DNA of 64,000 bases. It comes from a candidate division Hyd24-12 bacterium UBA6080 (GTDB lineage: Bacteria > Fermentibacterota > Fermentibacteria > Fermentibacterales > JCC-6). The notes under the pieces are model-generated. The model did no database searches and had not been told where the DNA came from. It worked only from the letters and a program-made list of their open reading frames with translations. The translations under genes and the position numbers were made by a program. Shown in pieces: positions 3,529 to 23,861 of the stretch. The stretch's first letter is position 1. Every line of letters begins with the position of its first letter. Location of the stretch: positions 245,659-309,658 of the forward strand of contig DIXM01000002.1 in NCBI GenBank assembly GCA_002436025.1, given 5' to 3'.

Positions 3529-3538
3529 GGAGGGTGGA

Positions 3539-4072
3539 ATGAGCATCACAAGACAGCGCAAGGAGACAACGGTCGCGTCCCTCACTGAGGAACTGGGGTC
3601 CAACGGGGCATTTGTTCTCGCGGATTTCACCGGGATAACCGTTGCCGACATGACCGAGTTGAGAAAGATCATGCGTGAGCGCGGGGTCAGCTTCACGGTA
3701 GTGAAGAACACCCTGCTCGACATCGTGCTGAAGGGCGTTGAACTCACAGGCGAAGAGGACGTCTTCCAGTACCTTCAGGGCCCCACAGCTCTGGCATCAA
3801 GCCGTGATGAAGTGCTTCCGGCAAAGGTTCTCAAGGAGTTTGCCGCCACCCATGAGGGTCGGCCCGTCATAAAGGGCGGCTTCGTGGCCGGGAGGAGTTA
3901 CAACGCGGTGCAGGTGGCGAGTCTGGCGGACATGCCAAGCCGGGATGAGCTTCTGGCCAGGGTCATGGGTTCCGCCACGGCCCCCATCCGGGGTTTTGTC
4001 ACCGTCACCGGCGGTATTGTGAGAAAGCTTCTTTACGCGCTCAACGCCGTGAAGGAAAGCAAAGAGAACTGA
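3539..4072 (+). CDS. rplJ: 50S ribosomal protein L10
   Basis: Internal ATG at 3539 preceded by GGAGGG. MSITRQRKETTVASLTEEL is L10-like. Confidence 0.85.
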   Translation: MSITRQRKETTVASLTEELGSNGAFVLADFTGITVADMTELRKIMRERGVSFTVVKNTLLDIVLKGVELTGEEDVFQYLQGPTALASSRDEVLPAKVLKEFAATHEGRPVIKGGFVAGRSYNAVQVASLADMPSRDELLARVMGSATAPIRGFVTVTGGIVRKLLYALNAVKESKEN

Positions 4073-4127
4073 GTCGATACCATTAACGCGACCCAAGGGT
4101 CCGATTGCCTAAAACGGAGGAAGAACC

Positions 4128-4508
4128 ATGAGTGACGACAAGAAGGCCGCCATCATCGAGGCCATTTCCAATATGACCGTTCTTGAGCTCGCCGAGCTTG
4201 TCAAGGAGATGGAAGCCAAGTTCGGAGTGTCGGCCGCAGCCCCCGCAGTTGCAGTTGCCGCTGCCGGACCCGCCGCTGCCGTGGAAGTGGAAGAGCAAAC
4301 CGAGTTCGACGTGATCCTCGAGAGCTTCGGCTCGAAGAAGATCGCTGTCATCAAGGTGGTCAGGGAACTCACGAACCTGGGTCTGAAGGAAGCCAAGGAC
4401 CTCGTGGACGGAGCCCCCTCCAAGCTCAAGGAAGCCGCGGAGAAGGCCGAAGCCGAAGAGATGAAGAAGCAGCTTGAGGAAGCCGGCGCAACTGTCATAC
4501 TCAAGTAG
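4128..4508 (+). CDS. rplL: 50S ribosomal protein L7/L12
   Basis: 126 aa with an Ala/Pro hinge and C-terminal [11 protein letters not shown]...KEEAEE. GGAGG RBS. Confidence 0.92.
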
Positions 4509-4529
4509 CAGGTGTATTCTGGTCTTTGC

Positions 4530-4560
4530 GGAAGGGACGGGATCAAATCCCGTCCCTTCC
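4530..4560 (+). terminator. rplL-rpoB intergenic hairpin (attenuator-like, weak U-tract)
   Basis: Perfect 13-bp stem GGAAGGGACGGGA / TCCCGTCCCTTCC with a 5-nt loop. Followed by CCCCGTTTCC...GTTTCGTGTTTCCTTTC. Matches the known partial terminator position between rplL and rpoB. Confidence 0.5.
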
Positions 4561-4610
4561 ATCCCCGTTTCCGGGCGTTTCGTGTTTCCTTTCAGTTGTG
4601 AGGAGCGGCA

Positions 4611-8412: not shown

Positions 8413-11400
8413 ATGCACAGCAATCCCTCTCCAAGAGATGTGAATGCTTTCCCCACCGATTTCAGGGGGATCCGCATAAGCCTCGCCTCTCCGGACACCA
8501 TAAGGAACTGGTCCCACGGCGAGGTCACCAAGGCTGAAACGATAAACTACAGAAGCTACAAGCCCGAACCTGACGGCCTCTTCTGCGAGCGCATATTCGG
8601 GCCTGAAAAGGACTGGGAGTGCGCCTGCGGAAGGTACAAGAGGATCCGCTACCGAGGCGTGAAGTGTGACCGGTGCGGGGTGGAAGTGACCATGTCCAAG
8701 GTGCGGCGCAGCCGCATGGGACACATTGATCTCGCAGTTCCCGTGTGCCACATATGGTACTACAAGAACCGCCAGATCTCAAAGCTCCTGGACATAACCA
8801 ACATCGATCTCGAAAGGGTTCTCTACTACGAATCATACATCGTTGTGGCCAGCGATCATCCCCAGCTCCGGCCCGGCACCGTCCTCGGTGACGAGGAGTA
8901 CTACGCCGCAAAGGAAACCTACGGGAAAGACACCTTCAAGGTGGGCATGGGCGCCGAAGCGATCGCGAACCTTCTGGCCGGGCTCGATCTCGAGGAGCTG
9001 GCCGCCATGCTCCGCACCTCCATCGCCAACGAAACGACCCTTTCCAGGCGTCAGAAGAACGTGAAGAGGCTGAAGGAAGTGGTGGCTTTCACGAACTCCC
9101 GGGCCGAGAACCGCCCGGAGTGGATGATCCTTCGAATACTTCCCGTGCTGCCTCCGGGTCTTCGGCCCCTGGTTCCCCTCGACGGTGGCCGCTTCGCCAG
9201 CAGTGACCTCAACGACCTCTACCGCAGGGTCATCAACAGGAACAACCGCCTGAAGAGGCTTCTTGACCTCCAGGCGCCCGACGTGATCCTTCGCAACGAA
9301 AAGCGGATGCTTCAGGAAGCGGTTGACGCGGTGCTTGACAACTCCAGCCGCCGCAAACCAGTGAAGGGCGCGGGCATGCGCCCGCTCCGAAGCCTCTCCG
9401 ACCTTCTGAAGGGGAAGCGGGGAAGGTTCCGCCAGAACCTTCTGGGCAAAAGGGTGGACTACTCAGGCCGAAGCGTCATCGTGGTCGGCCCCGAACTCAA
9501 GCTTCATCAGTGCGGTCTTCCGAAAACCATGGCCCTCGAGCTTTTCAAGCCCTTCGTGGTTGCCAGGTGGGAGAAGAAGTACGGTTGCGGCGTGAAGATG
9601 GCCCAGAAGAAGGTCGAAGAACGCCCGGAAGAAGTCTGGGCCATACTCGAAAAGGTTATCAGGAACCACCCGGTTCTCATCAACAGAGCTCCCACTCTGC
9701 ACAGGCTGGGAATCCAGGCCTTTGAACCCGTGCTGGTCGAGGGCCTTGCCATCAGGCTTCATCCGCTCTCCTGCGCCGCCTTTAACGCCGACTTCGACGG
9801 TGACCAGATGGCGGTTCACGTTCCCCTTTCCGCCGAGGCCCAGGTCGAGGCCAGAATGCTCATGCTGGGAAGCAGGAACATTCTCAAACCCGCCAGCGGC
9901 GAACCGGTGGTCACGCCCAGCCATGACATGGTCATCGGAGTGTACTACCTGACCAAACCCATGGTCGCCGCCAAGGGCGAAGGGATGGTCTTCTCGGGCA
10001 GGGAAGAGGTCATCGGCGCTCTGGATGCCGGCAAGGTTGACTATCACGCCAAGATAAAGATCAGGGGCGTGAACAGGATCGGCGAAACCGGCAACGACGG
10101 CGAGATGAGAAAACCCACGTACTGGAAGGACTACACGACCCCCGGTCAGGTGGTTTTCAACGGGATAGTTCCCGAAGGCATGGGTTACATAATGGCCAAC
10201 GGCCAGATCCCGCACGAAAAGGTTTTCGGCAAGAAGGGCCTTTCCTCGATGGTCTCCAGGTGCCACCACAACGAAGGCGCCGTGGCCTGCGCCGTATTCC
10301 TCGACAACCTGAAGAGCCTCGGCTTCCACTACAGCACCATCAGCGGGCTTACCGTGGGCATGCGTGACATGATCATCCCCGACATGAAGACCGAGATCGT
10401 CAGCGAGGGCAGGAGGCTCGTGGCCGAGGTCGAGGAGAGAGCCGGGAAGGGCGAACTAACCGAGGCCGAACGGTACAACAGGATCATCGACATATGGAGC
10501 AAGGCCACCGAAGACGTGAAGAAATCCATGATGGATGTCCTCGAGAGGGACAAACACGGTTTCAACCCCATCTTCATGATGGCCCACTCCGGTGCCAGGG
10601 GAAGCGTTGACCAGGTCAGACAGCTCGCAGGCATGAGAGGTCTCATGTCGAAGCCCAAGAAGAAGCTCTCCGGCGAGCTGGGGGAAACCATCGAAACCCC
10701 CATTTTAAGCTCACTGAAGGAAGGCCTCTCGGTCATCGAGTACTCCATCAGTACCCACGGGTCCCGCAAGGGTCTCGCCGACACAGCACTCAAGACCGCC
10801 GATGCGGGTTACCTCACCAGGCGTCTTGTGGATGTCTGCCAGGACGTTGTGATCACCATCGAGGACTGCGGCACGATAAGGGGCAGGAACATCAGCGCCC
10901 TGAAAGAGGGCGAGGAGATACTTGAACCCCTCCGCGACAGGATCGTGGGCAGGGTTACCGCCGAGGACGTCTTCGATCCCATCGGTGACGAGATCATCCT
11001 CGAGGCGGGACGCGAAGTTACGGCCGAGCACGCGCTCAGGATCGAGGAAAAGGGCATCGAGACCGTCAGGATCCGAAGCGTTCTCACCTGCGAGGCTGAA
11101 CACGGCCTTTGCGCCAGGTGCTACGGATGGGACCTCAGCCGAAACCGCATGGTGACAAGGGGAGAAGCGGTGGGAGTCATCGCTGCCCAGTCCATCGGAG
11201 AACCCGGCACCCAGCTCACCCTGCGCACGTTCCACACCGGTGGTGTTGCCGGCCGTGAGGCCAAGGAGACTGAAGTCAGGGCAAGGCGCGCCGGAAAGGT
11301 CAGTTTCCGCAACATCCATATCGTTGAGGGCTCGGACGAATCCGGCAAGGTCAACCGCATAGCCACCAGGAACGGTCAGATCGTTATTCTCGACGAAAGC

Positions 11401-13185
11401 GGCGATGCGGTGTCAACCTACGACATCGTGCCCGGCTCACTGCTCAATGTGACAGAAGACCAGCAGGTGGAGCGGGACGATCTGATCTGCAAGAGCGATC
11501 CGTTCATCATCCCCATCGTGAGTGAACACAACGGGTCGGTCCACTACGTCGACATCGAGGAAGAGATCACCCTCAGGGAGGAGATCGACAGCGAGCAGCG
11601 CAGACAGATGGTGATCGTGGAGGACCGCAGCCGTACTCTTCACCCTCACCTCTTCATCCTTCCGGAGCACATCGTTGTGCTAAGCGGAAGACCCCAGCGG
11701 AGGGACCGGGAACTCCGCACCATGCACGACCTCCTGAAAGAGGCTGATTCCTCCACGGGCCGGATCGTTTTCACCTACCGCGACCTCGGCTCGGTCAGGA
11801 ACACCTCCCTCCTTGAGGACTTCGTAGCTTCCAGGGACGAGAAGATCCCGCATGTAGGCGTTGACTGCAGAAGGGTTCACACCGGCAGTTACGCCGCCTT
11901 CGTTGATGCCATCAACCTCATTGAGCCCCTGGGCAAGAAGAGCGGTGGCGAACTCTGGAAAAACCTCAGGACCGCCATGGACAACCTTGCAGAGGCCTCA
12001 TCCAGGAACAATGAAGAGATGGAGACCCATTTCATCAGCGCCCTCCTCGAGTTCAGCAAAAAGGTTCCCATGGTGCTCTCCGTCGCCGACCTCAACAGGG
12101 GCCACACGGGCACCCGGAAACTGGTGTCGATGCTCTGCGAGTCGATCGATCAGGGCAGGATACTCTTCATCGCCAGTTTCTCCCGCAGGGGTCTTCGAAG
12201 CCACACCGTGGCCCGGGGCCGGCAGCGTACTCAGGACCAGGACCCGGTTGAAGAGTTCATCAAGGACAACGTCCTCGGCGTCTACCCCATCCCCAGCGGG
12301 GCTCACCTGCGCGTGGAGGACGGCGCCCTGATCAAGATGGGCGTTCACCTGGCCAGGATAGAGAGAAGGCTCGGTCAGCAGAGGGACATCACCGGCGGCC
12401 TTCCCCGGGTGGAGGAACTCGTGGAAGCGAGATGCCCTCTGGATGCAGCGGCGATCGCGGAGATAAGCGGTATGATCGGTCTCAGTTCGATCAAGGCCGC
12501 CATGCGCACCGTGACGATCCGGGGCGACCAGGGTCAGGAATCCTCCCTCAAGATCCAGGCTTCGAAGCACATCAGGGTGCGCGAGGCGGATCATGTCGAG
12601 GCAGGCGACAAACTCACCGAGGGCCCGCTCGATCCCCACGACATCCTGAGGGTGAGGGGAACCGAGGCGGTGGAGGATTACCTCCTCAACGAGATTCAGG
12701 AAGTCTACAGGCTTCAGGGAGTGAAGATCAACGACAAGCATGTGGGCATCGTCGTGCGCCAGATGCTTTCGAAGGCCAAGATCGAGGACCCGGGCGACAC
12801 CAGGTTCCTCGAAGGCTCCCAGGTGGACAGACTCGATCTCAACCGTCACAACATGGAAGTGATGAGGCAGGGCAAGAGGCCTGCCACGAGTGACGTTCTG
12901 CTGCTGGGCATCACCAAGGCATCCCTCGCAACCGACAGTTTCCTTTCGGCGGCATCATTCCAGGAGACGAACACAGTCCTCGCTGATGCAGCCGTTCAGG
13001 CCAAGGTCGATCCTCTGCTGGGTCTGAAGGAAAACGTCATTGTCGGTCACCTCATTCCAGCGGGAACCGGTTTGCCTCTGTACAGGAACGTGAGGCTTTT
13101 CCTGCCCGACGGCGGCGCACTGCCGGAGCCGGTCAGGCTTGAGCCTGAAGAAGATACGCTTGACAATTTCCATTTCGATGCGTAA
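8413..13185 (+). CDS. rpoC: DNA-directed RNA polymerase subunit beta' (long form, about 1590 aa)
   Basis: ATG at 8413, 2 nt after the rpoB stop. Zinc-binding CxC...CxxC N-terminus. NADFDGD catalytic motif. The ORF-track start at 8380 overlaps rpoB and was rejected. Confidence 0.95.
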   Translation: MHSNPSPRDVNAFPTDFRGIRISLASPDTIRNWSHGEVTKAETINYRSYKPEPDGLFCERIFGPEKDWECACGRYKRIRYRGVKCDRCGVEVTMSKVRRSRMGHIDLAVPVCHIWYYKNRQISKLLDITNIDLERVLYYESYIVVASDHPQLRPGTVLGDEEYYAAKETYGKDTFKVGMGAEAIANLLAGLDLEELAAMLRTSIANETTLSRRQKNVKRLKEVVAFTNSRAENRPEWMILRILPVLPPGLRPLVPLDGGRFASSDLNDLYRRVINRNNRLKRLLDLQAPDVILRNEKRMLQEAVDAVLDNSSRRKPVKGAGMRPLRSLSDLLKGKRGRFRQNLLGKRVDYSGRSVIVVGPELKLHQCGLPKTMALELFKPFVVARWEKKYGCGVKMAQKKVEERPEEVWAILEKVIRNHPVLINRAPTLHRLGIQAFEPVLVEGLAIRLHPLSCAAFNADFDGDQMAVHVPLSAEAQVEARMLMLGSRNILKPASGEPVVTPSHDMVIGVYYLTKPMVAAKGEGMVFSGREEVIGALDAGKVDYHAKIKIRGVNRIGETGNDGEMRKPTYWKDYTTPGQVVFNGIVPEGMGYIMANGQIPHEKVFGKKGLSSMVSRCHHNEGAVACAVFLDNLKSLGFHYSTISGLTVGMRDMIIPDMKTEIVSEGRRLVAEVEERAGKGELTEAERYNRIIDIWSKATEDVKKSMMDVLERDKHGFNPIFMMAHSGARGSVDQVRQLAGMRGLMSKPKKKLSGELGETIETPILSSLKEGLSVIEYSISTHGSRKGLADTALKTADAGYLTRRLVDVCQDVVITIEDCGTIRGRNISALKEGEEILEPLRDRIVGRVTAEDVFDPIGDEIILEAGREVTAEHALRIEEKGIETVRIRSVLTCEAEHGLCARCYGWDLSRNRMVTRGEAVGVIAAQSIGEPGTQLTLRTFHTGGVAGREAKETEVRARRAGKVSFRNIHIVEGSDESGKVNRIATRNGQIVILDESGDAVSTYDIVPGSLLNVTEDQQVERDDLICKSDPFIIPIVSEHNGSVHYVDIEEEITLREEIDSEQRRQMVIVEDRSRTLHPHLFILPEHIVVLSGRPQRRDRELRTMHDLLKEADSSTGRIVFTYRDLGSVRNTSLLEDFVASRDEKIPHVGVDCRRVHTGSYAAFVDAINLIEPLGKKSGGELWKNLRTAMDNLAEASSRNNEEMETHFISALLEFSKKVPMVLSVADLNRGHTGTRKLVSMLCESIDQGRILFIASFSRRGLRSHTVARGRQRTQDQDPVEEFIKDNVLGVYPIPSGAHLRVEDGALIKMGVHLARIERRLGQQRDITGGLPRVEELVEARCPLDAAAIAEISGMIGLSSIKAAMRTVTIRGDQGQESSLKIQASKHIRVREADHVEAGDKLTEGPLDPHDILRVRGTEAVEDYLLNEIQEVYRLQGVKINDKHVGIVVRQMLSKAKIEDPGDTRFLEGSQVDRLDLNRHNMEVMRQGKRPATSDVLLLGITKASLATDSFLSAASFQETNTVLADAAVQAKVDPLLGLKENVIVGHLIPAGTGLPLYRNVRLFLPDGGALPEPVRLEPEEDTLDNFHFDA

Positions 13186-13187
13186 AC
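13159..13187 (+). promoter_or_regulatory. Candidate sigma70-type promoter for rpsL-rpsG, embedded in the last codons of rpoC
   Basis: TTGACA - 17 nt - TAAACT, immediately before the rpoC stop. Followed by a 7-bp hairpin (CTGTTCC/GGAACAG, 13191-13213). Confidence 0.3.
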
Positions 13188-13241
13188 TTGCTGTTCCGCC
13201 AATGAAGGAACAGACGCTGTAAGGTTCTGAAAGGAGAGAAT

Positions 13242-13613
13242 TTGCCCACGATCAACCAACTGGTGCGGTCAGGGAGAAGCAAGCAGAAGGCCAACACAAA
13301 GGCTCCCGCGCTTACCTCCTGCCCTCAGAAAAAGGGCATCTGCACCCGTGTGTATACATCAACGCCCAAAAAGCCCAACTCCGCCCTCAGAAAAGTGGCC
13401 AGGGTCAGGCTTCGCAACGGTTATGAAGTAACAGCCTACATTCCCGGCGAGGGGCACAACCTCAACGAGCACTCCGTGGTTCTCGTCCGCGGGGGCAGGG
13501 TCAAGGACCTTCCCGGCGTGCGCTATCACATCATCCGCGGTGTTGAAGACGCCAGCGGCGTGAGCGGTCGCAAGCAGAGCAGGTCCAAGTACGGGACGAA
13601 GAAGGAAGCGTAG
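13242..13613 (+). CDS. rpsL: 30S ribosomal protein S12
   Basis: TTG start after [14 protein letters not shown]...[11 protein letters not shown] is the S12 signature. Confidence 0.92.
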
Positions 13614-13618
13614 GCGTC

Positions 13619-14086
13619 ATGAGAAGAAACAGACCGAAAAGGCGTGAGATACTTCCTGACAGGAAGTACGGAAACCTGGTGATCGCCAAGTTCATAAACA
13701 ACATCATGCACCAGGGCAAACGCTCAGTTGCCGAGGGCGTGGTATACGACGCTTTCGACATGATATCCGAAAAAACTGGTCAGGACCCCGTGGCCGTCTT
13801 CAACAAGGCCATGAACAACGTCCGCCCCACCCTCAAGGTGAAATCCAGGAGGGTTGGCGGTTCAACCTACCAGGTGCCCGTCGAGGTCAAGCAGAGCGAG
13901 CGCGACGCCCTGGCAATGCGCTGGATAATCAGCTACTCCAGGGGCCGCAAGGGGCGCAGCATGGCCCAAAGACTGGCCCAGGAGTTCATCGAGGCCTCCC
14001 AGGGCGAGGGCAACAGCGTCAAGAAGCGGGAAGACACCCACAAGATGGCCGAAGCCAACAAGGCTTTCGCCCACTACCGCTGGTAA
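13619..14086 (+). CDS. rpsG: 30S ribosomal protein S7
   Basis: 155 aa S7-like (MRRNRPKRREILPDRKYGN...). Confidence 0.92.
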   Translation: MRRNRPKRREILPDRKYGNLVIAKFINNIMHQGKRSVAEGVVYDAFDMISEKTGQDPVAVFNKAMNNVRPTLKVKSRRVGGSTYQVPVEVKQSERDALAMRWIISYSRGRKGRSMAQRLAQEFIEASQGEGNSVKKREDTHKMAEANKAFAHYRW

Positions 14087-14089
14087 TAA

Positions 14090-14161
14090 TTGGGGGACAC
14101 AATACTTGATTATCCGAAACGATGCGGGTCAAACTGGATAAGTAAGTTTTGTGTCCCCCAA
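14090..14161 (+). repeat. Palindromic repeat element copy A (72 nt)
   Basis: 13-bp perfect terminal stems TTGGGGGACACAA / TTGTGTCCCCCAA around a 46-nt interior. The conserved 5' motif TTGGGGGACACAATACTTGATTATCCGA recurs at 15049 and, inverted, at 16257. Starts 3 nt after the rpsG stop. Confidence 0.65.
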
Positions 14162-14177
14162 AATCCAAAAACCAAAA

Positions 14178-14564
14178 TCATTCCTCGAACACTCCATCGA
14201 CGAACTGCCCGTGATTCCTCCAGCAGTTCGCGTTCCATCCCCGAAGGCTGAACGTGTCCCTCTCTCTGCCCATGATACGGTATCTGTACTCGATGCCGGT
14301 CCTGGGGCAGACCAGACCTGCATGAACGTATCCTGAGATTGTGTTCAGCTTCTTCCAGCCGTTCCCCGGGGGATACTGATTGTGCTCTGCAAGGTAGAGT
14401 TGAAGCGCGCCCGCTATGGTTCTCAGATTCGACCTGCAGGAAGCAAGCTTTGCGCTTTCCGAAACGTCCCTGAATTTGGGAATGGCGATGGCGGACAGTA
14501 TTCCCAGTATCACCACCACTATCATGAGTTCGATGAGTGTGAAGCCCTTGTTGGAATCCTTCAC
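14178..14564 (-). CDS. Prepilin-type N-terminal cleavage/methylation domain protein (type IV pilin / T2SS pseudopilin-like)
   Basis: N-terminus MKDSNKGFTLIELMIVVVILGILSAIAIP is the class III signal with G|FTLIE. GTG start in a GTGA overlap with the upstream gene's stop. Confidence 0.75.
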   Translation of the reverse strand: MKDSNKGFTLIELMIVVVILGILSAIAIPKFRDVSESAKLASCRSNLRTIAGALQLYLAEHNQYPPGNGWKKLNTISGYVHAGLVCPRTGIEYRYRIMGRERDTFSLRGWNANCWRNHGQFVDGVFEE

Positions 14565-14965
14565 AGCTCACCTGCCTTGAAGGCTTCGATCTCCATGTCG
14601 GAAGTGTAATAGAGTCCGCCCGGGGTTCGAAGCGACCATTCATCGTCGTACTCCAGTTCGAACACGAAACCCGACGGAAGGTCAAGATCGGGTGCCAGGG
14701 GCATGGTATCGGTCAATGCCCGCCAATCCTGAACCCTCATGAAAACCGCAGCGACAGAATCCCTTTCCGCCTGCTCCAAAGGGGGCGGGGAGCCTACAAA
14801 ACCGCTGCCTTCAGGCTGATACAGCAGGACAACGATGATCAGAAGCGCACCCGCCGCGCCAAAGACCAGAATGCCGGAGCCTTTCTTCCGCTTTTCCTTC
14901 GGCGGGGCCTTCTCCTCGTAGACGATGTCCATGTCCAGCTCAAGGGGTTTCTGAGTGTTCGTCAT
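14561..14965 (-). CDS. Hypothetical membrane protein (co-transcribed with pilin)
   Basis: Start chosen at the ATG (MTNTQKP...) preceded by GGAGGAG; the ORF track's GTG at 14992 is upstream of it. One predicted TM segment (ILVFGAAGALLIIVVLLY). Confidence 0.5.
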   Translation of the reverse strand: MTNTQKPLELDMDIVYEEKAPPKEKRKKGSGILVFGAAGALLIIVVLLYQPEGSGFVGSPPPLEQAERDSVAAVFMRVQDWRALTDTMPLAPDLDLPSGFVFELEYDDEWSLRTPGGLYYTSDMEIEAFKAGEL

Positions 14966-15048
14966 GCCGGTCTCCTCCAGTAAGAGATTCACTCATCCCA
15001 ATCCCTGATTATCAAAAGAACTCCCACGGTTGCAAAGGGGTGGGTAAC

Positions 15049-15144
15049 TGGGGGACACAATACTAAATTATCCGATGGGAAAAATCTGAATCTTCAGGGT
15101 AGTTCAATGCAAACCTGCGGTTTTTACAGGTTTGTGTCCCCCCA
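15049..15144 (+). repeat. Palindromic repeat element copy B (96 nt)
   Basis: TGGGGGACACAATACTAAATTATCCGA...TTGTGTCCCCCCA with 12-bp perfect terminal stems. Lies in the divergent region between the minus-strand pilin operon and the plus-strand genes. Confidence 0.65.
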
Positions 15145-15160
15145 TTCCCTTGGAGGCCTT

Positions 15161-15861
15161 TTGAGACACTTCACATTGGCCCTCATCCTTCTTACGAAAT
15201 GGTCAGCTTATGGAGCAGATTCCGCATTATTCCGTTTCATCGGCTTTTCCACCGATGGAGTTTTTTCGCCTGGGAGCAGTACGGCGTACAGGACGGCAGC
15301 GGTTTTCCGTGGAGCACGGTGACCATCCAGTCGACTGCTGACGGATCAGTCATCCATGAGTTCAGCGTCGTCCTGGAAGACGGGTTCAAGGGAGAAGGCG
15401 ACCCCGGGGGGGAGAGTATGCGGCTGGCACACGAGGCTCTCCTCTGCCTGTCCGGCGGAAGCTGGGACAGGGGTTCGCTGCTCGTTCACCATCCCCCCAC
15501 AGACATGACGTTCGGGGGAAGCCAGGTGACCTTCTGCACGACTTACTACTCCCCCTCATACTACATCGGTGACTACACACTCGACCTTGTTACCGTGGAG
15601 ATTCCCGGGACTGAGATGGAGGAGTACTGGGGGTTCCCACCGCTTTCGTTGTCCGTGGTGTTTTCCGATAACATCACAGGTCTCACCCGAACGGTGATGG
15701 ATACATCCGACAGGACCGGCAACCTCCAATGGGTGTTCGGTTACGGCATACAGGACGTCTGGTGCATTGGGGACTCGGTCTTTGCTGCTGCCATCCAGTG
15801 CGTATCCATAGGTTTCGAAGGACCTGACCTGCGGTACCTGATGACGGGCTGGACGATTTGA
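15161..15861 (+). CDS. Hypothetical secreted protein; reading frame interrupted at a T6 tract (15261-15266)
   Basis: TTG start after GGAGG encodes a signal-peptide-like MRHFTLALILLTKWSAYGADSALF... in the frame of ORF 15107..15322. The long body continues in the frame of ORF 15199..15861. One extra T in the T6 run would join them into about 233 aa. Confidence 0.45.
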
Positions 15862-15885
15862 CCGGTCACATCGTGAGGAGGAACG

Positions 15886-16203
15886 ATGTCTTCTGAGAAA
15901 GCCTTCACCTGCAGCCAGTGCGGGGCCCCCGAACTGGAACGGTCGGGGGAGGGAAAGCTGCGATGCCCATATTGCGGCAGCCTCTACAGCTTTTCAGTGC
16001 GGGGTCCGACCGTTGTGATCCGAAAGGGAGCAAACGTCATCATTGGCAAAAAAGCAAAAGTTACGATAAGAGGCGGGGTGGAGATCCACGAAGGCGCCCG
16101 GGTCAAGATTGACGGAGAGGTGACACTTCTGGAAAGGGCGCCCGAAGAGGCCATCAGCGCCGCCAGACTGAGGCTGCGAGCAACGGGCAAAGACGAAACT
16201 TAA
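15886..16203 (+). CDS. Small zinc-ribbon protein with bactofilin-like beta-helical repeat segment
   Basis: GAGGAGG RBS. CSQCG...CPYCG zinc ribbon. Then VVIRKGANVIIGKKAKVTIRGGVEIHEGARVKIDGEVTLL, an alternating hydrophobic/Gly pattern as in bactofilin DUF583. Confidence 0.6.
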   Translation: MSSEKAFTCSQCGAPELERSGEGKLRCPYCGSLYSFSVRGPTVVIRKGANVIIGKKAKVTIRGGVEIHEGARVKIDGEVTLLERAPEEAISAARLRLRATGKDET

Positions 16204-16215
16204 GATATCTAAACT

Positions 16216-16249
16216 GAAGGTTCATTTTTCTTTAAAAAATGAGGCCTTC
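16216..16249. terminator. AT-rich palindromic hairpin between convergent genes
   Basis: GAAGG...CCTTC stem around the near-palindrome CATTTTTCTTTAAAAAATG. A striking AT island in GC-rich DNA. Confidence 0.3.
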
Positions 16250-16256
16250 GGTGCAA

Positions 16257-16285
16257 GATAATTTAGTATGGTGTCCCCCAATTTA
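16257..16285 (-). repeat. Repeat copy C (inverted, left-arm motif only)
   Basis: The reverse complement reads AATTGGGGGACACCATACTAAATTATC, about 24/27 identity to copies A and B. No partner arm. Abuts the stop codon of the MFS gene. Confidence 0.6.
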
Positions 16286-17464
16286 TTCCTTGATCGGCTT
16301 CAGGGTGAAACCAATGATGGCAGCCACGAAGCACAGGGCCGCGGCGGTATAGTAGGCTGCGGTGTAGCCGCCGGTAGAGTCGAGTATCCTTCCCGCCATC
16401 ATGGGGCCGATCTGCCCGCCCACACCCCACGCTGTGAAAAGAACTCCGTAGTTCAACCCCATGTTTTTCGTGCCGTAGAAATCACCGACCGCGGAGGGGT
16501 AGACGGAAAGCATGGCGCCGTAGGCGAAGGTGACGACCATCGCGCCGAAAAGGATGGATGCGAAGCTCCCGAAGCTTGCGAAGAAAAGAAGGACAGTACC
16601 CTGGGCGAGGTAGAGGATCATCATGGTCTTCGCCCGTCCCAGTTTGTCCGAGATGGTTCCCGCAATGGGCCGGCCAAGGGCGTTGCTTATTGCCATGAAG
16701 GCCACCAGCAGAAAGCCGAAGTTCCGGCCGGTCTGCACGCTGGCGATCGTTGAAAGGTGGCCGATGATCATCAGACCGGCCAGCGCCCCCGCGACGAACA
16801 TCACCCAGAGCTGGTAGAACTGCCGTGTGCGTATCATCTGTTTCCAGTCGTAGTCACGTACCGAGACCCTGGCCTGCCGTCCGGCAGCCTGCACCTGCTT
16901 TTCGGGGTTCTTTAGGGTCTGGGCGAGTCCCACCACCACCAGGAAGAAGCCCGCTCCGAGAATCCGGAAGGAGTTGAAGATCGTGTAGTTCTGTATCAGG
17001 TAGTTGGTGAGGGGCGCGATGTAGATGGTTGCCGCGCCGAACCCTCCCACCACCATGCCCGAGATCAGCCCCTTGCGCTCAGGTGGGAACCACTTTATGG
17101 CGACGGGGGTCGTGGCCGAGTAACCAAGACCGATTCCCGACCCCGCCATGATACCGAAGCACAGCACAAGCCCCGGAACGGTCTGGAAGAAACTGGCCAG
17201 AACCATGCCTCCCCCCACCAGTATCCCGGCCAGCGTCACTACGACCCTGGGGCCGTACTTGTCCTGAAGACGGCCACCGAAGATCATCATGACGGCGAAC
17301 ATTGCCACAGCCATCGTGTAGGGCAGCGAAGCCTGGGTGCTGCTCCATCCAAGCGATTCCCGCAGGTTGGCGGCGAAGATGCTCCAGGCGTAGAGAACTC
17401 CGAAGGAAAGGTTGATGCCCATTCCGGCCAGGACGATGGTCCATGCCCTTTTGTTCCTGTTCAT
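16283..17464 (-). CDS. MFS transporter, oxalate/formate antiporter (OFA) family-like
   Basis: 393 aa with 12 predicted TM helices. OFA-like motifs. Confidence 0.8.
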   Translation of the reverse strand: MNRNKRAWTIVLAGMGINLSFGVLYAWSIFAANLRESLGWSSTQASLPYTMAVAMFAVMMIFGGRLQDKYGPRVVVTLAGILVGGGMVLASFFQTVPGLVLCFGIMAGSGIGLGYSATTPVAIKWFPPERKGLISGMVVGGFGAATIYIAPLTNYLIQNYTIFNSFRILGAGFFLVVVGLAQTLKNPEKQVQAAGRQARVSVRDYDWKQMIRTRQFYQLWVMFVAGALAGLMIIGHLSTIASVQTGRNFGFLLVAFMAISNALGRPIAGTISDKLGRAKTMMILYLAQGTVLLFFASFGSFASILFGAMVVTFAYGAMLSVYPSAVGDFYGTKNMGLNYGVLFTAWGVGGQIGPMMAGRILDSTGGYTAAYYTAAALCFVAAIIGFTLKPIKE

Positions 17465-17535
17465 ATGCGGAAGCCCCCCTGTTGAATTTAGCCCGGATTA
17501 TAGCTGGATTGGCTGTTCTTAACAAAACCCGGCTA

Positions 17536-18765
17536 TCAGTGCTTTCCCGCCCGAATGCCTGAAGCTGCCGCCACTGCGGAAGAGAATGCCCACTGGATGT
17601 TGTAACCGCCGGTATCGCCGTCCACATCGAGGACTTCCCCCGCGAAGAAAAGACCCGGGGTGATCCTGGATTCCATGCTCTTCCGGTTGACCTCGTCCCG
17701 GGTCACGCCTCCCGCTGTTGCCATTGCGACATTGAAGCCGCCCTTTTTCGCAACCTTGACGGGAAATGCCGTTACCAGACCGAGTATCTTCATTCGATCG
17801 GTCCTTCCGATCTCTCCTCCCTTGCGGGACGGAACGATACCCGCCTTTTCGAGAACGGTGTCCGCGAGCCGTTCGGGAATGCCAAGGCCTTTCACGATGG
17901 TTCTGACCGCCTTCTTTCCCCCGGCCTGAAGGGCGGCGATAAGGCTGATTTCGACTTCTCCCGCAGGTTTGTCCGTAAGCGCCACCGAAAGCCTGTCACC
18001 ATCCCTGATGTGCCTGCTGAGGTCCAGTATTCCGGGTCCCGAAAGCCCAGCTCCGGTGAAGAGAACGTCGCCCCTGGCTGAAATCGTCCTCCCGTCGGCC
18101 TTATGAAGGGAGATCGCCGGGTTTTTGACTGATATGCCGGCAAGCCCTGCGGGAAAAGGTTCCTCCGCCGTTATGTGTGTGAGGGAGGGGGTGATGTCGG
18201 TTACGGTATGGCCCAGCGAAACCGCCAGATCGAACCCGTCACCTGCTGAGCCGGTGTCGGGGTAGGAGCACCCGCCCGTGGCTATGACCAGGTAATCGGA
18301 TGAGAACACCGCTGCACCAGTGGTGACGGTGAAACCGCCCTCCTCCCTTGAAACCGCTTCGACCTGTGAGTCGAACACCATCCTTACGCCCTTCCCGGCA
18401 CACCGCCCAAGAAGAAGCGCGAGGATGTCGGATGCCCTCATTCCCGCAGGGAACAGCTTGCCGTCCTCCCGGGCGAAGGTCTTTACGCCGCCGTTCTCGA
18501 GAAAGGCGCACAGGTCTTTGTTGGTGAAGGCCAGAAGGGCTGGTTTGACGAAATTGGCTGCTCCACCGTAGTGCCCGGTGAATTCACTGATCGGACCGGT
18601 CCGGCTGAAATTGCACTGCCCCGACCCCGAAAGCAGCAGCTTTCTGCCGGGACTTCCGTTCTTCTCAAGCAGGAGCACATCATCCCTGTTCGTGCATGCG
18701 TTCAGGGCACAGAACAGTCCTGCGGGACCTGCCCCGATGACAATGGTCTTGTATCTGGAGAGCAT
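17536..18765 (-). CDS. HI0933/BaiN-like NAD(P)/FAD-dependent oxidoreductase (aminoacetone oxidase family flavoprotein)
   Basis: Start set at the internal ATG giving MLSRYKTIVIGAGPAGLF (Rossmann GxGxxG). LLLEKNGSPGRKLLLSGSGQCNFS is typical of the HI0933 family. Confidence 0.8.
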   Translation of the reverse strand: MLSRYKTIVIGAGPAGLFCALNACTNRDDVLLLEKNGSPGRKLLLSGSGQCNFSRTGPISEFTGHYGGAANFVKPALLAFTNKDLCAFLENGGVKTFAREDGKLFPAGMRASDILALLLGRCAGKGVRMVFDSQVEAVSREEGGFTVTTGAAVFSSDYLVIATGGCSYPDTGSAGDGFDLAVSLGHTVTDITPSLTHITAEEPFPAGLAGISVKNPAISLHKADGRTISARGDVLFTGAGLSGPGILDLSRHIRDGDRLSVALTDKPAGEVEISLIAALQAGGKKAVRTIVKGLGIPERLADTVLEKAGIVPSRKGGEIGRTDRMKILGLVTAFPVKVAKKGGFNVAMATAGGVTRDEVNRKSMESRITPGLFFAGEVLDVDGDTGGYNIQWAFSSAVAAASGIRAGKH

Positions 18766-18772
18766 GAGCGGC

Positions 18773-19174
18773 CTACAGCCTCCATACCTCCTCGCCGGTC
18801 TGGACCAGGCCCATCCCGTTTTCCTCCAGGGCTGAGCGCATCCATTCCAGTGACTTGTCGAAGTTATCAAGCAGGACGGTGCTTCCGTTATCGGAGCTGA
18901 CCTGCAGCAACCTGCTGTTCCGGGCGTAGGTTCCCCTGGAAACGGTTACTGTGCCGAAGGGAAGGCTGACAGGTTTTCCCCTTATCAGAAGCTTTAGAAG
19001 GATACCCAACTGGGTGTAGAGCAGCGCCATCTTTCCCAGGTCGTGAAAGACGAACCTTCTGTTGGTCAGAACGCAACGGCAGTCAACCGGGAACTTTATC
19101 TTCCCGCCCTGCAGCGTGTAACGGCGTCTGTCGGCGAAAACCTGCTCATCGGGGTCGGGCGTGAACTTCGGCAT
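18773..19174 (-). CDS. Hypothetical protein (possible bacterial PH-like fold)
   Basis: 133 aa, no signal peptide. Co-directional and tightly spaced between the OM-barrel gene and the oxidoreductase gene. Confidence 0.4.
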   Translation of the reverse strand: MPKFTPDPDEQVFADRRRYTLQGGKIKFPVDCRCVLTNRRFVFHDLGKMALLYTQLGILLKLLIRGKPVSLPFGTVTVSRGTYARNSRLLQVSSDNGSTVLLDNFDKSLEWMRSALEENGMGLVQTGEEVWRL

Positions 19175-19189
19175 GAAACTCCTTTTTTC

Positions 19190-19921
19190 TCAGAACATCC
19201 TTCTGATGGTAAAGCCCAGGGCGAGGTCGTTCGTGGCCGCCCCGTTCAACTGCCCCCGCGGGCCGATGCCGGTACTGTTCCCAAGGATGACGACGAACTG
19301 GTGACCCCATGTGGTGCGCCTGACCCCGAAGCAGAACGAGTCTTCGGGAAGGATCGATTGATCTTCGTCATCCCGGTCGATGACCGGGAAGTATTCTCCG
19401 ATAAGGGCCGTATTCTCCCCAAGACCAAGGGAAAGACCGAACCCGGGGCCGTGCCTTTCGGTCCTGCCGTCATAGGCATAGTTCACCGTGGGGATGATCC
19501 GCCCGTTCGCGAAGGGGGCCGAGAACGCGCCAAGCAGCGTCAGCCCGCCCTCACGGTCCTGGTTGGCCGCAGGTTTCACCGAGGAATACCCCATGGAAAA
19601 GGCAGCCTCGAAGCTGTCGACAAAGGTGCTCCAGTACCCGCCCAGCGTGTATTCCTTCCCGGAGCGCACGTGCCCGGCCCTGATCTCGAGACCGTTCACC
19701 GGGAACCATCCCAGTTCTGCACCCACGTTGGCACCGATGTCCATTCCGAAGAATGTCTCGATCGGTTCGTCCTTAAGTGCTGCCCCGTAGAACCTGTGGT
19801 TCAGCCTGAGTTCCAGGCTTCCCTCACCGGTTGCCGGCGCGGGGGTCTCGATGTTGAGCATCCCAGGGCCGTAGGCGGCCAAAGGACAGGCGATCGCCAG
19901 AAGCATCGCGGCAACTCTCAT
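19190..19921 (-). CDS. Putative outer-membrane beta-barrel protein
   Basis: Signal peptide MRVAAMLLAIACPLAAYG. Alternating amphipathic strands rich in aromatic and Gly residues. C-terminal ...GFTIRRMF ending in Phe. Confidence 0.55.
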   Translation of the reverse strand: MRVAAMLLAIACPLAAYGPGMLNIETPAPATGEGSLELRLNHRFYGAALKDEPIETFFGMDIGANVGAELGWFPVNGLEIRAGHVRSGKEYTLGGYWSTFVDSFEAAFSMGYSSVKPAANQDREGGLTLLGAFSAPFANGRIIPTVNYAYDGRTERHGPGFGLSLGLGENTALIGEYFPVIDRDDEDQSILPEDSFCFGVRRTTWGHQFVVILGNSTGIGPRGQLNGAATNDLALGFTIRRMF

Positions 19922-19930
19922 GAGAACCTC

Positions 19931-20461
19931 CTAAAGGAGTTCGAGTGAAACTGCACGAACGAACTGGTGCGCGCTTGTGAAATCATCTCCCCCACTTGGA
20001 CCGTAAGCCAGCAGGATCGCATAGGTTTCCCCCTGGGTGAGAACGGCATCGTACAGGTCGCCGGAAGACATGGGGATGGAGAAGTCGATCTCGGTCTTGT
20101 TTCCGGTCTCGCCCGCCTCTATGAGCGTGACGTTGCTGTTGCCTCCCAATACAATGTCGGCCTCGTGGGTCGTGACGCCCGTACCGAAATCGTCACGTAT
20201 GAACCCCGTTCCGTCTTCGACGTATCCGATGATGAAATTCGCATCCTTCATCATCACGGAGGGGTCGAAACCAACCGCAACCCAGCCCGTCGTTGGCGCG
20301 GAGAGTTTCACGTGAAGGGTCGCCCCGTCGTTCTCCACCCGCCACTGAAACACGACATCGTCAGTGGTGTAGTCGTTCCATCCCTCGGTCCCGGAAGGGC
20401 CCGTGGTGTCGCCGCAGCTTCCCATAAGAAGCAGGGCTGTAATGACAAAAGCTTTTTTCAT
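19931..20461 (-). CDS. DOMON-domain lipoprotein (paralog 1)
   Basis: MKKAFVITALLLMGSCG lipobox. TGWVAVGFDPSVMM.DANFIIGYV...IRDDFG...H..D..LGG core shared with the divergent paralog. Confidence 0.7.
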   Translation of the reverse strand: MKKAFVITALLLMGSCGDTTGPSGTEGWNDYTTDDVVFQWRVENDGATLHVKLSAPTTGWVAVGFDPSVMMKDANFIIGYVEDGTGFIRDDFGTGVTTHEADIVLGGNSNVTLIEAGETGNKTEIDFSIPMSSGDLYDAVLTQGETYAILLAYGPSGGDDFTSAHQFVRAVSLELL

Positions 20462-20545
20462 TCCGCCTCCGCCCTTTTCCATCGTTTTCCTTACTTGACA
20501 GTTGTATTATTATACTTGCTGGTGAAAAAGAAAGGAAGGCTGACA

Positions 20546-21094
20546 ATGGGTAAGCTGTTGATCATCATGGCCGTCCTCACAGGCACCACATTCGCATGGC
20601 AGGAGATCGAGGTTTCGGGATTCCTCCTCAGATGGGAAACCCGGGCGGGAGACAACCTTGCTGTGGAGCTCACCGGTCCCACGACGGGCTGGGTTGCGGT
20701 GGGTTTCGACCCCTCCGTGATGATGCTGGACGCCAACATCATCATCGGCTACGTTTCGGGCGGCAACACCTTCATCAGGGACGACTTTGGATGGCAGACC
20801 ACATCCCACAGGGCCGACACCCTCCTGGGGGGAACCGAAGACTTTATCATCGACGGCGGCTCCGAGTCCGGGGGGGAAACCCAGATCAGGTTCACCATCC
20901 CGCTTGACTCCGGTGACCAGTACGACAAGCCCCTTGTTCCCGGCAGCTCCTACCCGATAATACTTGCCAGGGGACCCAACGGCGCAGACGACTTCTCGAC
21001 CCAGCACCAGTTCATAACCACTGCCACCATCGACATCCTTGCCTTCTCCCTCCAGGGGTCCACCTGGGGTAGGGCGAAGATGGGTCTTGACTGA
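20546..21094 (+). CDS. DOMON-domain protein (paralog 2, signal peptide)
   Basis: AAAGGAAGG RBS. MGKLLIIMAVLTGTTFA signal. The same TGWVAVGFDPSVMMLDANIIIGYV...IRDDFG core as paralog 1. Confidence 0.7.
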   Translation: MGKLLIIMAVLTGTTFAWQEIEVSGFLLRWETRAGDNLAVELTGPTTGWVAVGFDPSVMMLDANIIIGYVSGGNTFIRDDFGWQTTSHRADTLLGGTEDFIIDGGSESGGETQIRFTIPLDSGDQYDKPLVPGSSYPIILARGPNGADDFSTQHQFITTATIDILAFSLQGSTWGRAKMGLD

Positions 21095-21692
21095 GAGCAC
21101 GACCGACACTCTTCGGATACTCGCCTTTGCGGGCAGCACCAGAGAGGGATCTTTCAATCGCGCACTGATGGAACAGGCTGCCGGGTTCGCACGCGAGGCC
21201 GGCGCTGCTGTCACCCTGGTCGATCTCGACGACTTCCCCATGCCGATAGTGAACCAGGACCTTGAAACCGCGCACGGCATCCCTGCGACCGCCCTGGCCT
21301 TCAAACGGCTTCTTTCAGAGAACGACGGCTTTCTCATCGCGTCGCCTGAATACAACGGCTTCGTTACACCGCTGCTCAAGAACTGCCTGGATTGGGCTTC
21401 CCGTTCGGAAACGCCCGACGAGAAGCCCCTCTCGGCGTTCAGGGGGAAGACGGCGGCCATCCTGTCGGCATCACCCGGAGGCCTTGGGGGGCTCCGCAGC
21501 CTGTCCGTCCTCAGAACGCTTCTGACGAACCTCGGTGTGATCGTGCTTCCGGGGCAGCATGCGGTCTCCGGGGCGGACGGGGCGTTCGATGATGAAGGAA
21601 AACTGAAGGATTCCGGGAACGTCGCATCGGTGAAAAGGGTCGTCCGGGAACTTGTCAGGGTCACTTCCGCTCTGAGAGCAACGGTCCACTGA
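21087..21692 (+). CDS. NAD(P)H-dependent FMN reductase family protein
   Basis: TTG start overlapping the DOMON stop. LRILAFAGSTREGSFNRAL...LIASPEYNGFVTPLLKNCLDW is typical of the SsuE/ArsH-like FMN reductase family. Confidence 0.75.
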   Translation: MTESTTDTLRILAFAGSTREGSFNRALMEQAAGFAREAGAAVTLVDLDDFPMPIVNQDLETAHGIPATALAFKRLLSENDGFLIASPEYNGFVTPLLKNCLDWASRSETPDEKPLSAFRGKTAAILSASPGGLGGLRSLSVLRTLLTNLGVIVLPGQHAVSGADGAFDDEGKLKDSGNVASVKRVVRELVRVTSALRATVH

Positions 21693-22387
21693 TGCTGCTT
21701 CAGGCGCTTCCGCCGGCGCTCCCGCCCGGGAGTTCAGAATCATCCGACGCACTCCAGGCCATCGCCCTGCGAGCCGTGCTCCGATCCCCGGAGTGGGGGC
21801 AGGTCAAAGAGTACTGGAACCTTCTGAACCGCGTAACAGGGAAAGGTGGCCAGTTCCAGCCCGCCGGTGACCTGGACATGGCAAAGGCCGACAGCATCAT
21901 AGCCGATGTTCGCAGGTGCATGGCCGGGCTCAACCCCGACGGCGGTACGGGGGGCATGTGGAGCGCCCTTGAGATGACGGGTCTTCTCGTTGAGACCCGG
22001 GCACTGAGGCTCAGCCGCATCAACCCCGCTTTCATGACAAGGATGATGCCCTCATGGTCGACCACCTTCGGTGAAGACCTGCTCTACAGCTTCGACTCAA
22101 GGCTCAGGGAGCTCGAGAGGCTCAGGAGCGGGGGTGAACTCACCGAAGAGGTCTTCCTGTCTGCGTCGGATACGCTTGGCAGACAGTTCGAAACGTGGGC
22201 GCTTCTGCAGTTGGCCGATGACCGGTACGGCTTCGGGCCCCCCGGTATTCAGGAAAGGCTTCTGGAGGTCGAACTCCTCTACGAAACCGTTGCGGAGGAA
22301 TTCGGCGAGGAGAGGGTTCTGGCCTTCAGGGAGATGCGCCCATACCTCGAGCCCCTTCTCGAAAGTCTTCTTGAGGAGTTTTACTGA
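21692..22387 (+). CDS. Hypothetical protein (231 aa, no recognisable domain)
   Basis: TGATG coupled to the FMN reductase gene. Ends in a CTGA junction with the radical SAM gene. Confidence 0.5.
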   Translation: MLLQALPPALPPGSSESSDALQAIALRAVLRSPEWGQVKEYWNLLNRVTGKGGQFQPAGDLDMAKADSIIADVRRCMAGLNPDGGTGGMWSALEMTGLLVETRALRLSRINPAFMTRMMPSWSTTFGEDLLYSFDSRLRELERLRSGGELTEEVFLSASDTLGRQFETWALLQLADDRYGFGPPGIQERLLEVELLYETVAEEFGEERVLAFREMRPYLEPLLESLLEEFY

Positions 22388-23298
22388 ACGTCTTCTGGTT
22401 CGCGTTCGAGGTCACTCCCGTCTGCAACCTTTCCTGCGGCTACTGTTACAACTTCTGGCGCGACCCCGGGCAGCAGGTTCCACGGGAGCTTGAGATTACA
22501 GAGATCCGGGGGATTCTGCACAGCCTTCGGACCGATGCCCCGGGATCAGGCGTGACCCTTACGGGAGGCGAACCCCTGCTCAGACCCGATCTTCCCGGGA
22601 TCGCAGCTGCAGCAGCGGAACAGGGCTTCACAGTGGCCGTCGCCACCAACGGGACACTTCTGACATCATCCATTGCCCGCGAACTGCGGGATTCGGGAGT
22701 AAGGCACTTCGACATCGGCATCGAAACCAGAGTCGCGGACGTTTCAGAAGGGATAGCAGGTGCCTGTGCGACCGGGGCCAGCGTCACCCTTTCACTTTGC
22801 CTCACCTCGAAAAACTCCGGTTCGGCACCGGAAGTGGTGAGGTTTGCGGCGGCTCTGGGGGCCGATGCCGTGTGTCTGAACAGGTTCGTTCCAACGGGCA
22901 GGCCGACCGATGCCGACCACCTGCCCTCGTCAACCGGGATCATTGATGCCCTGCGGGATGCCGGAAGGGTGGGCGCGGAGCTCTCCCTGCCTGTCTACGC
23001 GGGCATCCCGCTGGAGCCCTGTGTGTTCCCCAATGTCAATGAATTTGGTATAATCAACACCGCATGTCACTGTGGAGAGGGAAAGTGGGCCATAGGGCCC
23101 GATGGCTGGCTGAGAACCTGTGAGCAGAGCCCTGTTCTTCTCGGAAGCCTGCTTACAGAAAGGTTTTCTGCACTGAGGGAGTTGACCGTCGTGAAAGGGT
23201 TCCGTGAAGCCACACCTTTCCGTAAATGCCATGGTTGTGCCGATCTTCCACGTTGCGGCGGAGGGTGCAGGTTTCTTGACGGATCGGAGTGCAGTTGA
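22384..23298 (+). CDS. Radical SAM / SPASM-domain protein (no canonical start codon before the Cys motif)
   Basis: Frame open from 22375. It encodes LNVFWFAFEVTPVCNLSCGYCYNFW (CxxxCxxC), then GGEPLL, then C-terminal CHCGEGKW...CHGCADLPRCGGGCR (SPASM/twitch-like). The first canonical start (GTG 22552) lies after the cluster motif. A CTG at 22384 overlaps the upstream TGA. Confidence 0.6.
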   Translation: MNVFWFAFEVTPVCNLSCGYCYNFWRDPGQQVPRELEITEIRGILHSLRTDAPGSGVTLTGGEPLLRPDLPGIAAAAAEQGFTVAVATNGTLLTSSIARELRDSGVRHFDIGIETRVADVSEGIAGACATGASVTLSLCLTSKNSGSAPEVVRFAAALGADAVCLNRFVPTGRPTDADHLPSSTGIIDALRDAGRVGAELSLPVYAGIPLEPCVFPNVNEFGIINTACHCGEGKWAIGPDGWLRTCEQSPVLLGSLLTERFSALRELTVVKGFREATPFRKCHGCADLPRCGGGCRFLDGSECS

Positions 23299-23789
23299 AC
23301 TACTTCGCGTACGGATCGAACATGTCCCTGGCAAGGCTGTCCGCCAGGATCCCGTCGGTGCGGCGAACCTGTGTGGGCTCTCTCGCCGGTTATAAACTGG
23401 TGTTTCACAAGGCCGGTGAAAGCGACGGCTCGGCCAAATGCGACGCATTCTTCACGGGCGACCCGTCCCACGAGCTCCTGGGCGTGGTGTACCGGATCGA
23501 TCCCGACGAGAAACACAGGCTGGACATCATCGAAGGCGTCGGTTACGGCTACGAGAACCGTTGCGTCAAGATCAGGCTCGGGGACGGCAGCGTCGTTTCG
23601 GCCTGGGTTTACTGCGCCACCGTCATCAATCCTTCGCTGCTGCCTTTCGACTGGTACAGGGAGCATGTGGTGAGGGGAGCCCTTGAAAACGGTCTTCCCG
23701 ACCATTACGTCTCCCGCATAAGGGCCGTCGAGGCAAAGAGCGACCCCGACCGTGAACGGGCCTCACGCGAGCTTTCCATCTACGCCTGA
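23289..23789 (+). CDS. Gamma-glutamylcyclotransferase (GGCT/AIG2-like) family protein
   Basis: N-terminus QLNYFAYGSNM is the GGCT signature. GTG start overlapping the radical SAM gene end. Confidence 0.75.
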   Translation: MQLNYFAYGSNMSLARLSARIPSVRRTCVGSLAGYKLVFHKAGESDGSAKCDAFFTGDPSHELLGVVYRIDPDEKHRLDIIEGVGYGYENRCVKIRLGDGSVVSAWVYCATVINPSLLPFDWYREHVVRGALENGLPDHYVSRIRAVEAKSDPDRERASRELSIYA

Positions 23790-23791
23790 AC

Positions 23792-23820
23792 TTGACAAAC
23801 CGGCATCCTGTCGTAAGAAT
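23792..23820 (+). promoter_or_regulatory. Candidate promoter upstream of fusA
   Basis: TTGACA - 17 nt - AAGAAT, 42 nt before the fusA ATG. Confidence 0.25.
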
Positions 23821-23861
23821 GCCTGCCTGTAACCCCCACAGCCAGGAGACAGGTTCCGCCC

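Follow-up and report, generated by a model that had tools for sequence, protein, structure and literature searches.

Recent single-base inactivations, seen as strain-specific frameshift pseudogenes, are common in bacterial genomes and metagenome-assembled genomes (MAGs). Poly-G and poly-C contingency loci, for example among the surface genes of Campylobacter, Neisseria and Haemophilus, carry a homopolymer where two frames meet, close to the 5' end of a gene whose product is exported; in known loci of this kind, the tract is typically 8 or more nucleotides long. Programmed -1 frameshifting of the kind found in dnaX and IS3-family transposases, like transcriptional slippage, involves a -1 shift on a U-run, and a run of six T/A is shorter than the length that RNA polymerase requires for efficient slippage. 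With these systems we compare a split gene of the DUF2259 family (Pfam PF10016, "Predicted secreted protein"); a literature search on DUF2259 found nothing.

The gene lies in a stretch of 64,000 nucleotides from candidate division Hyd24-12 bacterium UBA6080 (contig DIXM01000002.1), which we refer to as the window. We judge, with a probability of about 0.8, that a genuine, recent and strain-specific deletion of one base has inactivated this gene, which would then be a young pseudogene and not a regulated switch. A lesion of this type is already known in kind: it is an ordinary single-base inactivation. As in other strain-specific frameshift pseudogenes, the change is a single-base indel, the orthologues are intact, no sign of decay is seen yet, and nothing about the locus is distinctive. 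With the contingency loci, the gene shares a homopolymer at a frame junction near the 5' end of an exported-protein gene. However, the tract here consists of 6 T nucleotides, has the same length in on and off alleles, is not conserved in relatives, and exhibits no heterogeneity among four assemblies. The requirement for a -1 shift on a U-run is shared with dnaX, the IS3 family and transcriptional slippage, whereas an in-frame tandem slippery heptamer, a stimulatory structure and conservation of the split arrangement are all absent from this locus.

The gene is on the plus strand. It begins with a TTG codon at positions 15161-15163, preceded at a spacing of 4 nt by the Shine-Dalgarno sequence GGAGG (15152-15156). 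This TTG aligns with the ATG start codons of the orthologues, which also have GGAGG upstream, at an equal spacing in intact loci L001 to L004 (homologous loci and proteins are cited by L and P numbers). The frame reads MRHFTLALILLTKWSAYGADSALFRFIGFSTDGVFSPG..., and positions 15161-15214 encode a predicted Sec signal peptide, MRHFTLALILLTKWSAYG, with predicted cleavage before ADS. The prediction is based on heuristic features only, namely a positive n-region, a 9-aa hydrophobic core (KD 2.54) and A-x-G at -3/-1 before ADS; by the same heuristic, the N-termini of relatives have the same features. The 5' part of the native coding sequence extends from 15161 to 15260 and covers codons 1-33 in full and codon 34 up to its first base. 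One base is then missing between G15260 and T15261, where the intact allele reads G-C-T (codon 34, GCT, alanine), and a T6 run follows at 15261-15266, whose length is equal in the frameshifted and intact alleles. The 3' part, from 15262 to 15861 (codons 35-233 and the stop codon at 15859-15861), is out of frame with the start. The start-codon frame ends at a premature TGA at 15320-15322, with a predicted product of 53 aa, and the open reading frame (ORF) at 15199-15861 is offset from it by +2, which is equivalent to -1.

A preliminary description of this region had proposed the TTG start with GGAGG 4 nt upstream, the reading and the stop codon of its frame, a T-run of exactly six at the frame junction, and an uninterrupted 233-aa product once a base is added there; each of these points was confirmed. 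It had also described the ORF beginning at 15199 as lying in another frame, with neither a signal peptide nor a plausible start of its own. The difference in frame stands, as does the lack of a signal peptide, which neither shortened product has. The lack of a plausible start does not stand, because ATG 15199 and GTG 15319 are both possible and both are used by public gene callers. The 220-aa ORF called by JGI (P0090, 15199-15861) starts at an ATG without a Shine-Dalgarno sequence, and the 180-aa ORF called in NCBI, ENA and Logan (P0091, 15319-15861) starts at a GTG with GGAG (15311-15314) 4 nt upstream. The latter lacks both a signal peptide and the FAWEQYGVQDGSGFPW motif, and a search by heuristic features of the N-termini of P0090 and P0091 found a signal peptide in neither.

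Homology assigns both frames to one gene. Searched by itself, the 53-aa upstream peptide aligns with residues 1-35 of protein P0003 (E = 6e-14). The downstream 220-aa ORF aligns with residues 34-233 of P0003 (E = 3e-129), and its initial 20 residues match nothing. Matches of both frames to one protein are far beyond chance and therefore indicate a single split gene, with the frame switch at residues 34-35. The earlier proposal of a single secreted-protein gene broken by a 1-nt frameshift at this spot is thus borne out. After repair of the frame, the protein scores 47.4 bits against PF10016 (gathering cutoff, 25; E = 2.8e-12), with a match that starts at residue 37. Like other members of the family, it exceeds the threshold, has the 233-aa length of its orthologues, and contains the FAWEQYGVQDGSGFP and GFEGPD motifs; by the heuristic features given above, it also has a putative N-terminal signal peptide. 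The fused protein has 89 homologues, all with PF10016, the best with an E value of 1e-141 at 92% identity and 100% coverage. The closest are P0001 (92% identity), P0002 (84%) and P0003 (84%), each with 100% coverage and a length of 233-234 aa, and one of the best homologues comes from a MAG of Candidatus Fermentibacteraceae and is named as a DUF2259 protein.

The alignment to P0001-P0003 is collinear over the junction, which is located just before the most conserved motif of the family, FAWEQYGVQDGSGFPW; FAWEQYGVQDGSGFP in the repaired protein is likewise the motif most conserved in the family. In the alignment of homologues, residues 37-50 are nearly invariant, and G218, F219, E220 and G221 are invariant. 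An AlphaFold model of the repaired protein has a pLDDT of 82 and a pTM of 0.80, with low pLDDT in the signal-peptide stretch. In the model, strand 1 (residues 23-30, pLDDT >90) and strand 2 (residues 35-41) flank the lesion, and the whole predicted fold is encoded by neither ORF alone. Orthologues at L001, L002, L003/4, L005-8, L013, L014, L016 and L059-L063 are all intact in a single frame. In the window, this frame is interrupted by the 1-nt deletion at 15260/15261, and the start frame stops at 15322; the disruption relative to the intact orthologues is reproduced in four assemblies.

The nature of the lesion is best seen by comparison with L013, a locus from the Logan assembly of SRR21291833 whose protein (P0093) has a window-type N-terminus and is in frame. 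Over 1010 nt, L013 and the window share 96.8% identity, with the lesion as the only indel. Within 15086-15317, just two further differences separate the sequences, and the 5' part of the gene (15161-15260) differs by one synonymous substitution, at 15217. The junction reads GGAGTTTTTTCGCC in the window and GGAGCTTTTTTCGCC in L013, which corresponds to the codons GAT GGA GCT TTT TTC GCC in L013 and GAT GGA G-T TTT TTC GCC in the window. An alanine codon (GCN) at position 34 is common to L003, L005 and L061, and in every relative except L013 the T-runs at this site are three or fewer (for example, GGT GAG TAC TTC GCC and GGT GCG TAC TTT GCC). Because the T6 of L013 is preceded by C, the simplest lesion would be deletion of this C beside an unchanged T-run. 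Judged from these alleles, the most parsimonious event would be loss of the C from codon 34, 5' of T6, and not a contraction from T7 to T6. A possible alternative is a route of two steps, in which a C-to-T change would give GTT TTT TTC (T7) and a real or artefactual change from T7 to T6 would follow.

L013 is a 1-kb metagenomic contig that may be a strain mosaic, yet its 31-mers around the site are of the window type on both sides. Exact-pattern scans for T6/T7 or +C alleles gave no match in GTDB species-representative genomes or in JGI metagenome contigs, two collections that do not contain the contigs of the strain itself. A protein-guided scan of metagenome contigs recovered only more distant relatives, which were intact.

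The alternative that survives best is a sequencing or assembly artefact, in which the true genome would have an unbroken frame (GCT6 or GT7), with one base lost beside or within the homopolymer during base-calling or consensus formation. We consider this improbable, yet it deserves more weight than any of the other alternatives discussed below. The lesion does touch a homopolymer, and the gene is otherwise perfectly conserved. The preliminary description had raised a homopolymer assembly error as one possibility, which is disfavored by the presence of the same lesion in four assemblies, by longer homopolymers that are in frame, and by the lack of any other intragenic indel in 20.5 kb. In detail, the same G followed by T6 is present in JGI 3300002498 (assembled with CLC; TOLCLC_10000048, 798,777 bp), in ENA ERZ27315036 (MEGAHIT; k141_86836, 799,009 bp), and in the Logan assemblies of SRR943309 and SRR943313. 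Over 2.2-6.7 kb, these assemblies match the window at 100% identity. They represent three assemblers and at least two sequencing runs, all in exact agreement. The four probably derive from one culture or DNA source and may share raw data, so a systematic error is conceivable, and it is for this reason that we leave some residual probability to an artefact.

Other homopolymers and indels also speak against a miscount. We checked all 49 homopolymers of at least 6 nt in the window, and the long ones reside in long open frames, including G9 in fusA, G8 at 47843 and C8 at 54191, as well as C7 and G7 runs. Since the assembly resolves G9 in the essential fusA gene, and other tracts more prone to error are likewise in frame, miscounting of a T7 is unlikely. 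When the window is compared with L001 (a 2-Mb contig with 96% identity that is syntenic over 20.5 kb), five gaps are found, four of which are intergenic or at gene boundaries; the only intragenic gap is the lesion. Relative to L013, the nearest intact allele, the T-run has the same length and the missing base is a C, unlike the usual miscall of homopolymer length. In a collection of 15 billion proteins, the exact in-frame product of the strain is missing, and both shortened calls are present: the 180-aa call on 5 or 7 contigs, depending on the look-up (NCBI, ENA and Logan), and the 220-aa call from JGI.

Downstream of the lesion, dN/dS is 0.13-0.18 in all pairs with relatives. Such values are favorable to an artefact. 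If the lesion is real, they imply that purifying selection acted on the gene until a recent time, and therefore that the lesion is young. The low dN/dS is no positive evidence of decay. Amino-acid changes specific to the window amount to one (A to G in GGESM), and the substitutions are too few for relaxed selection to be judged.

Less probable than an artefact is that the lesion beside T6 acts as a reversible or leaky switch, through changes from T6 to T7 in the population or low-level -1 slippage of the ribosome or RNA polymerase on U6, so that some full-length DUF2259 protein would still be exported. If this were true, an uncultured phylum (Fermentibacteria) would harbor an incipient contingency locus. 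Slipped-strand phase variation in the strict sense, which the preliminary description had also offered, would have the tract alternate between T6 and T7 and turn the secreted protein off and on within a population. T6 does sit at the frame junction, a change to T7 would restore the frame with a plausible V-F-F, and secreted proteins are a typical class of contingency-gene product. However, the on allele and the off alleles share T6 and differ by a C, where L013 is taken as the on-state locus and the window together with L009-L012 as the off-state loci. Moreover, the strain is in the off state in each of its four assemblies, the T7 version is absent from the 15-billion-protein collection, and the tract is missing from every other orthologue, where T-runs are at most three. 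T6 is also below the homopolymer length of known contingency loci. We therefore regard phase variation at this tract as highly unlikely.

Least probable of all is recoding, whether by the ribosome (a programmed -1 frameshift) or by transcriptional slippage on U6/T6, that would supply some full-length ...GVFFAWEQ... protein: a slip of the P-site tRNA-Phe from UUU (15263-65) to UUU (15262-64) would yield exactly this sequence, but the zero-frame codons GGA GUU UUU UCG contain no X XXY YYZ heptamer and the A-site tRNA would be unable to re-pair, the 94 nt at 15267-15360 fold at -30.2 kcal/mol compared with a shuffled mean of -30.4 (z = 0.06) and thus offer no stimulatory structure, the sole Shine-Dalgarno-like GGAG is 2 nt from the site and off the spacing known to stimulate -1 shifts, six T/A are too short a run for efficient slippage by RNA polymerase, and all orthologues, including the nearest allele, are plain in-frame genes in which the split arrangement is not conserved. 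Separately, a terminator-like hairpin that ends in the T-run (15234-15266) was considered and rejected, as such hairpins occur at chance frequency (3 found, 2.7 expected).

In the reading that we prefer, a recent null allele, positions 15161-15861 are the orthologue of a gene for a 233-aa secreted DUF2259 protein whose place between rpsG and fusA is conserved in Candidatus Fermentibacteraceae. One base pair would have been lost, most simply the C of codon 34 (GCT to G-T) directly before T6. Translation from the TTG at 15161 would now produce the 18-aa signal peptide and 35 further residues before the stop at 15322. The remaining 199 codons would be readable just from internal starts without an export signal, namely ATG 15199 or GTG 15319. 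Because these internal starts provide no export signal, the strain most likely makes no functional exported DUF2259 protein.

The region around the lesion has a mosaic pattern of divergence. Relative to L001, synonymous divergence (dS) falls from about 1.9 in codons 1-35 to 0.08 downstream, and the change coincides with the lesion site (15161-15265 versus 15267-15861). Given the high divergence of codons 1-35 from L001, the lesion lies on the border of a segment that is recombined or mosaic. L013 resembles the window 5' of about 15318 and L001 3' of about 15318. On the basis of these alignments, the pattern points to strain recombination or to a mosaic metagenomic contig. A different arrangement is found in L015 (JGI Ga0351878_1254), in which positions 1-6876 consist of the reverse complement of the equivalent of 10111-15083 in the window (from inside rpoC to a pilin block described below) joined directly to the equivalent of 15301 onward. 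Either the inversion/deletion is real, or the contig is an assembly chimera. Protein P0005 (180 aa) was evaluated as a possible second, independently frameshifted copy of the gene and rejected, since its contig, L015, lacks the 5' part of DUF2259 as a result of this rearrangement or chimera.

The organism belongs to Candidatus Fermentibacteraceae. The gene is part of a set of about 9.8 kb of nonribosomal genes (14087-23861) that interrupts the str operon between rpsG and fusA. This set contains genes for DUF2259, a Zn-ribbon protein, an MFS transporter, an HI0933-like flavoprotein, DUF5777, two DOMON proteins, FMN_red, a radical SAM protein and GGACT, and it has the same order in L001 and L002. 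The preliminary description had placed the gene inside a mobile-looking cassette, a view that finds no support, as the pair of DUF2259 and Zn-ribbon genes has the same rpsG-fusA position in related genomes. Given the equal order of the block in L001 and L002, the DUF2259 gene is not obviously part of any mobile cassette. In a relative with 67% identity, this gene is located elsewhere.

The downstream partner gene (15886-16203, plus strand) is intact and encodes a 105-aa protein with an N-terminal zinc ribbon; the exact protein is present in NCBI, JGI, Logan and ENA. It follows the DUF2259 gene by 22-25 nt in L001-L004 and L013-L015. The zinc ribbon has the form CxxC...CxxC. After it comes a repetitive segment, rich in beta structure, that matches hexapeptide repeats weakly. 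A Pfam search with this protein returned just weak zinc-ribbon matches and no established family.

Between rpsG and the DUF2259 gene is a 958-bp block (14087-15075), the sole part beside the gene pair that is variably present. It is missing in L001 (96% identical) and L002, and present in L003, L004 and L015. On its minus strand it carries genes for a prepilin-type N-methyl protein (14178-14564) and a 143-aa ORF (14561-14992). The block is bordered by a 31-nt direct repeat (14087-14117 and 15045-15075; copies 90% identical), and each copy is part of a hairpin element. A motif, TGGGGGACACAATAC, occurs four times in the window, at 14091, 14146 (minus strand), 15049 and 16266 (minus strand), where 0.1 occurrences are expected. 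Copies of TGGGGGACACAATAC form hairpins at 14090-14161 and 15043-15149, and they bracket the pilin block and the DUF2259/Zn-ribbon pair. The motif resembles the REP-like palindromic elements of intergenic regions.

A related box, TTGGGGACACCATACTAAATTATCC, is found upstream of the DUF2259 gene and is conserved in all close relatives. We rejected this box as a candidate structured RNA, because its closing stem is not conserved and the energy of its consensus fold is -6.3 kcal/mol. When 13900-16400 was scanned against Rfam, the sole match was a subthreshold one to a miRNA precursor on both strands, which corresponds to a plain hairpin. A long, near-perfect hairpin at 14077-14178, between the rpsG stop codon and the 3' end of the pilin-like gene, resembles, at a subthreshold score on both strands, the precursor of a plant miRNA; it probably represents either a terminator that works in both directions or a copy of the palindromic element. 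Elsewhere in the set, a 1-nt indel relative to L001 at 18775 turns the TAA stop codon of a 133-aa gene into TAG and displaces the region in which the HI0933-like gene starts. The length of the HI0933-like gene varies among relatives, at 409 or 416 aa, and its longest ORF here is 444 aa. A 5-nt indel relative to L001 is found at 16284, at the stop codon of the MFS gene.

Beyond annotation, the finding matters little. The 220-aa and 180-aa "proteins" in public databases are not the real product of the gene, and both lack the export signal. A full-length product would contain STDG(A/V)FFAWEQYGVQDGSGFPW and STDG(A/V)FFAWEQYGVQDGSGFPWSTVTIQSTADGSVIHEF across the junction. If the deletion is real, this Fermentibacteria strain can live without the DUF2259 secreted protein. 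The contig name suggests that the strain comes from a toluene-degrading methanogenic enrichment. Papers on TOLDC describe a toluene-degrading enrichment from an aquifer in Colorado, with no link to SRR943309 or SRR943313, and a literature search found these run numbers in no paper. A real deletion would be a weak hint that DUF2259 may be dispensable under such conditions.
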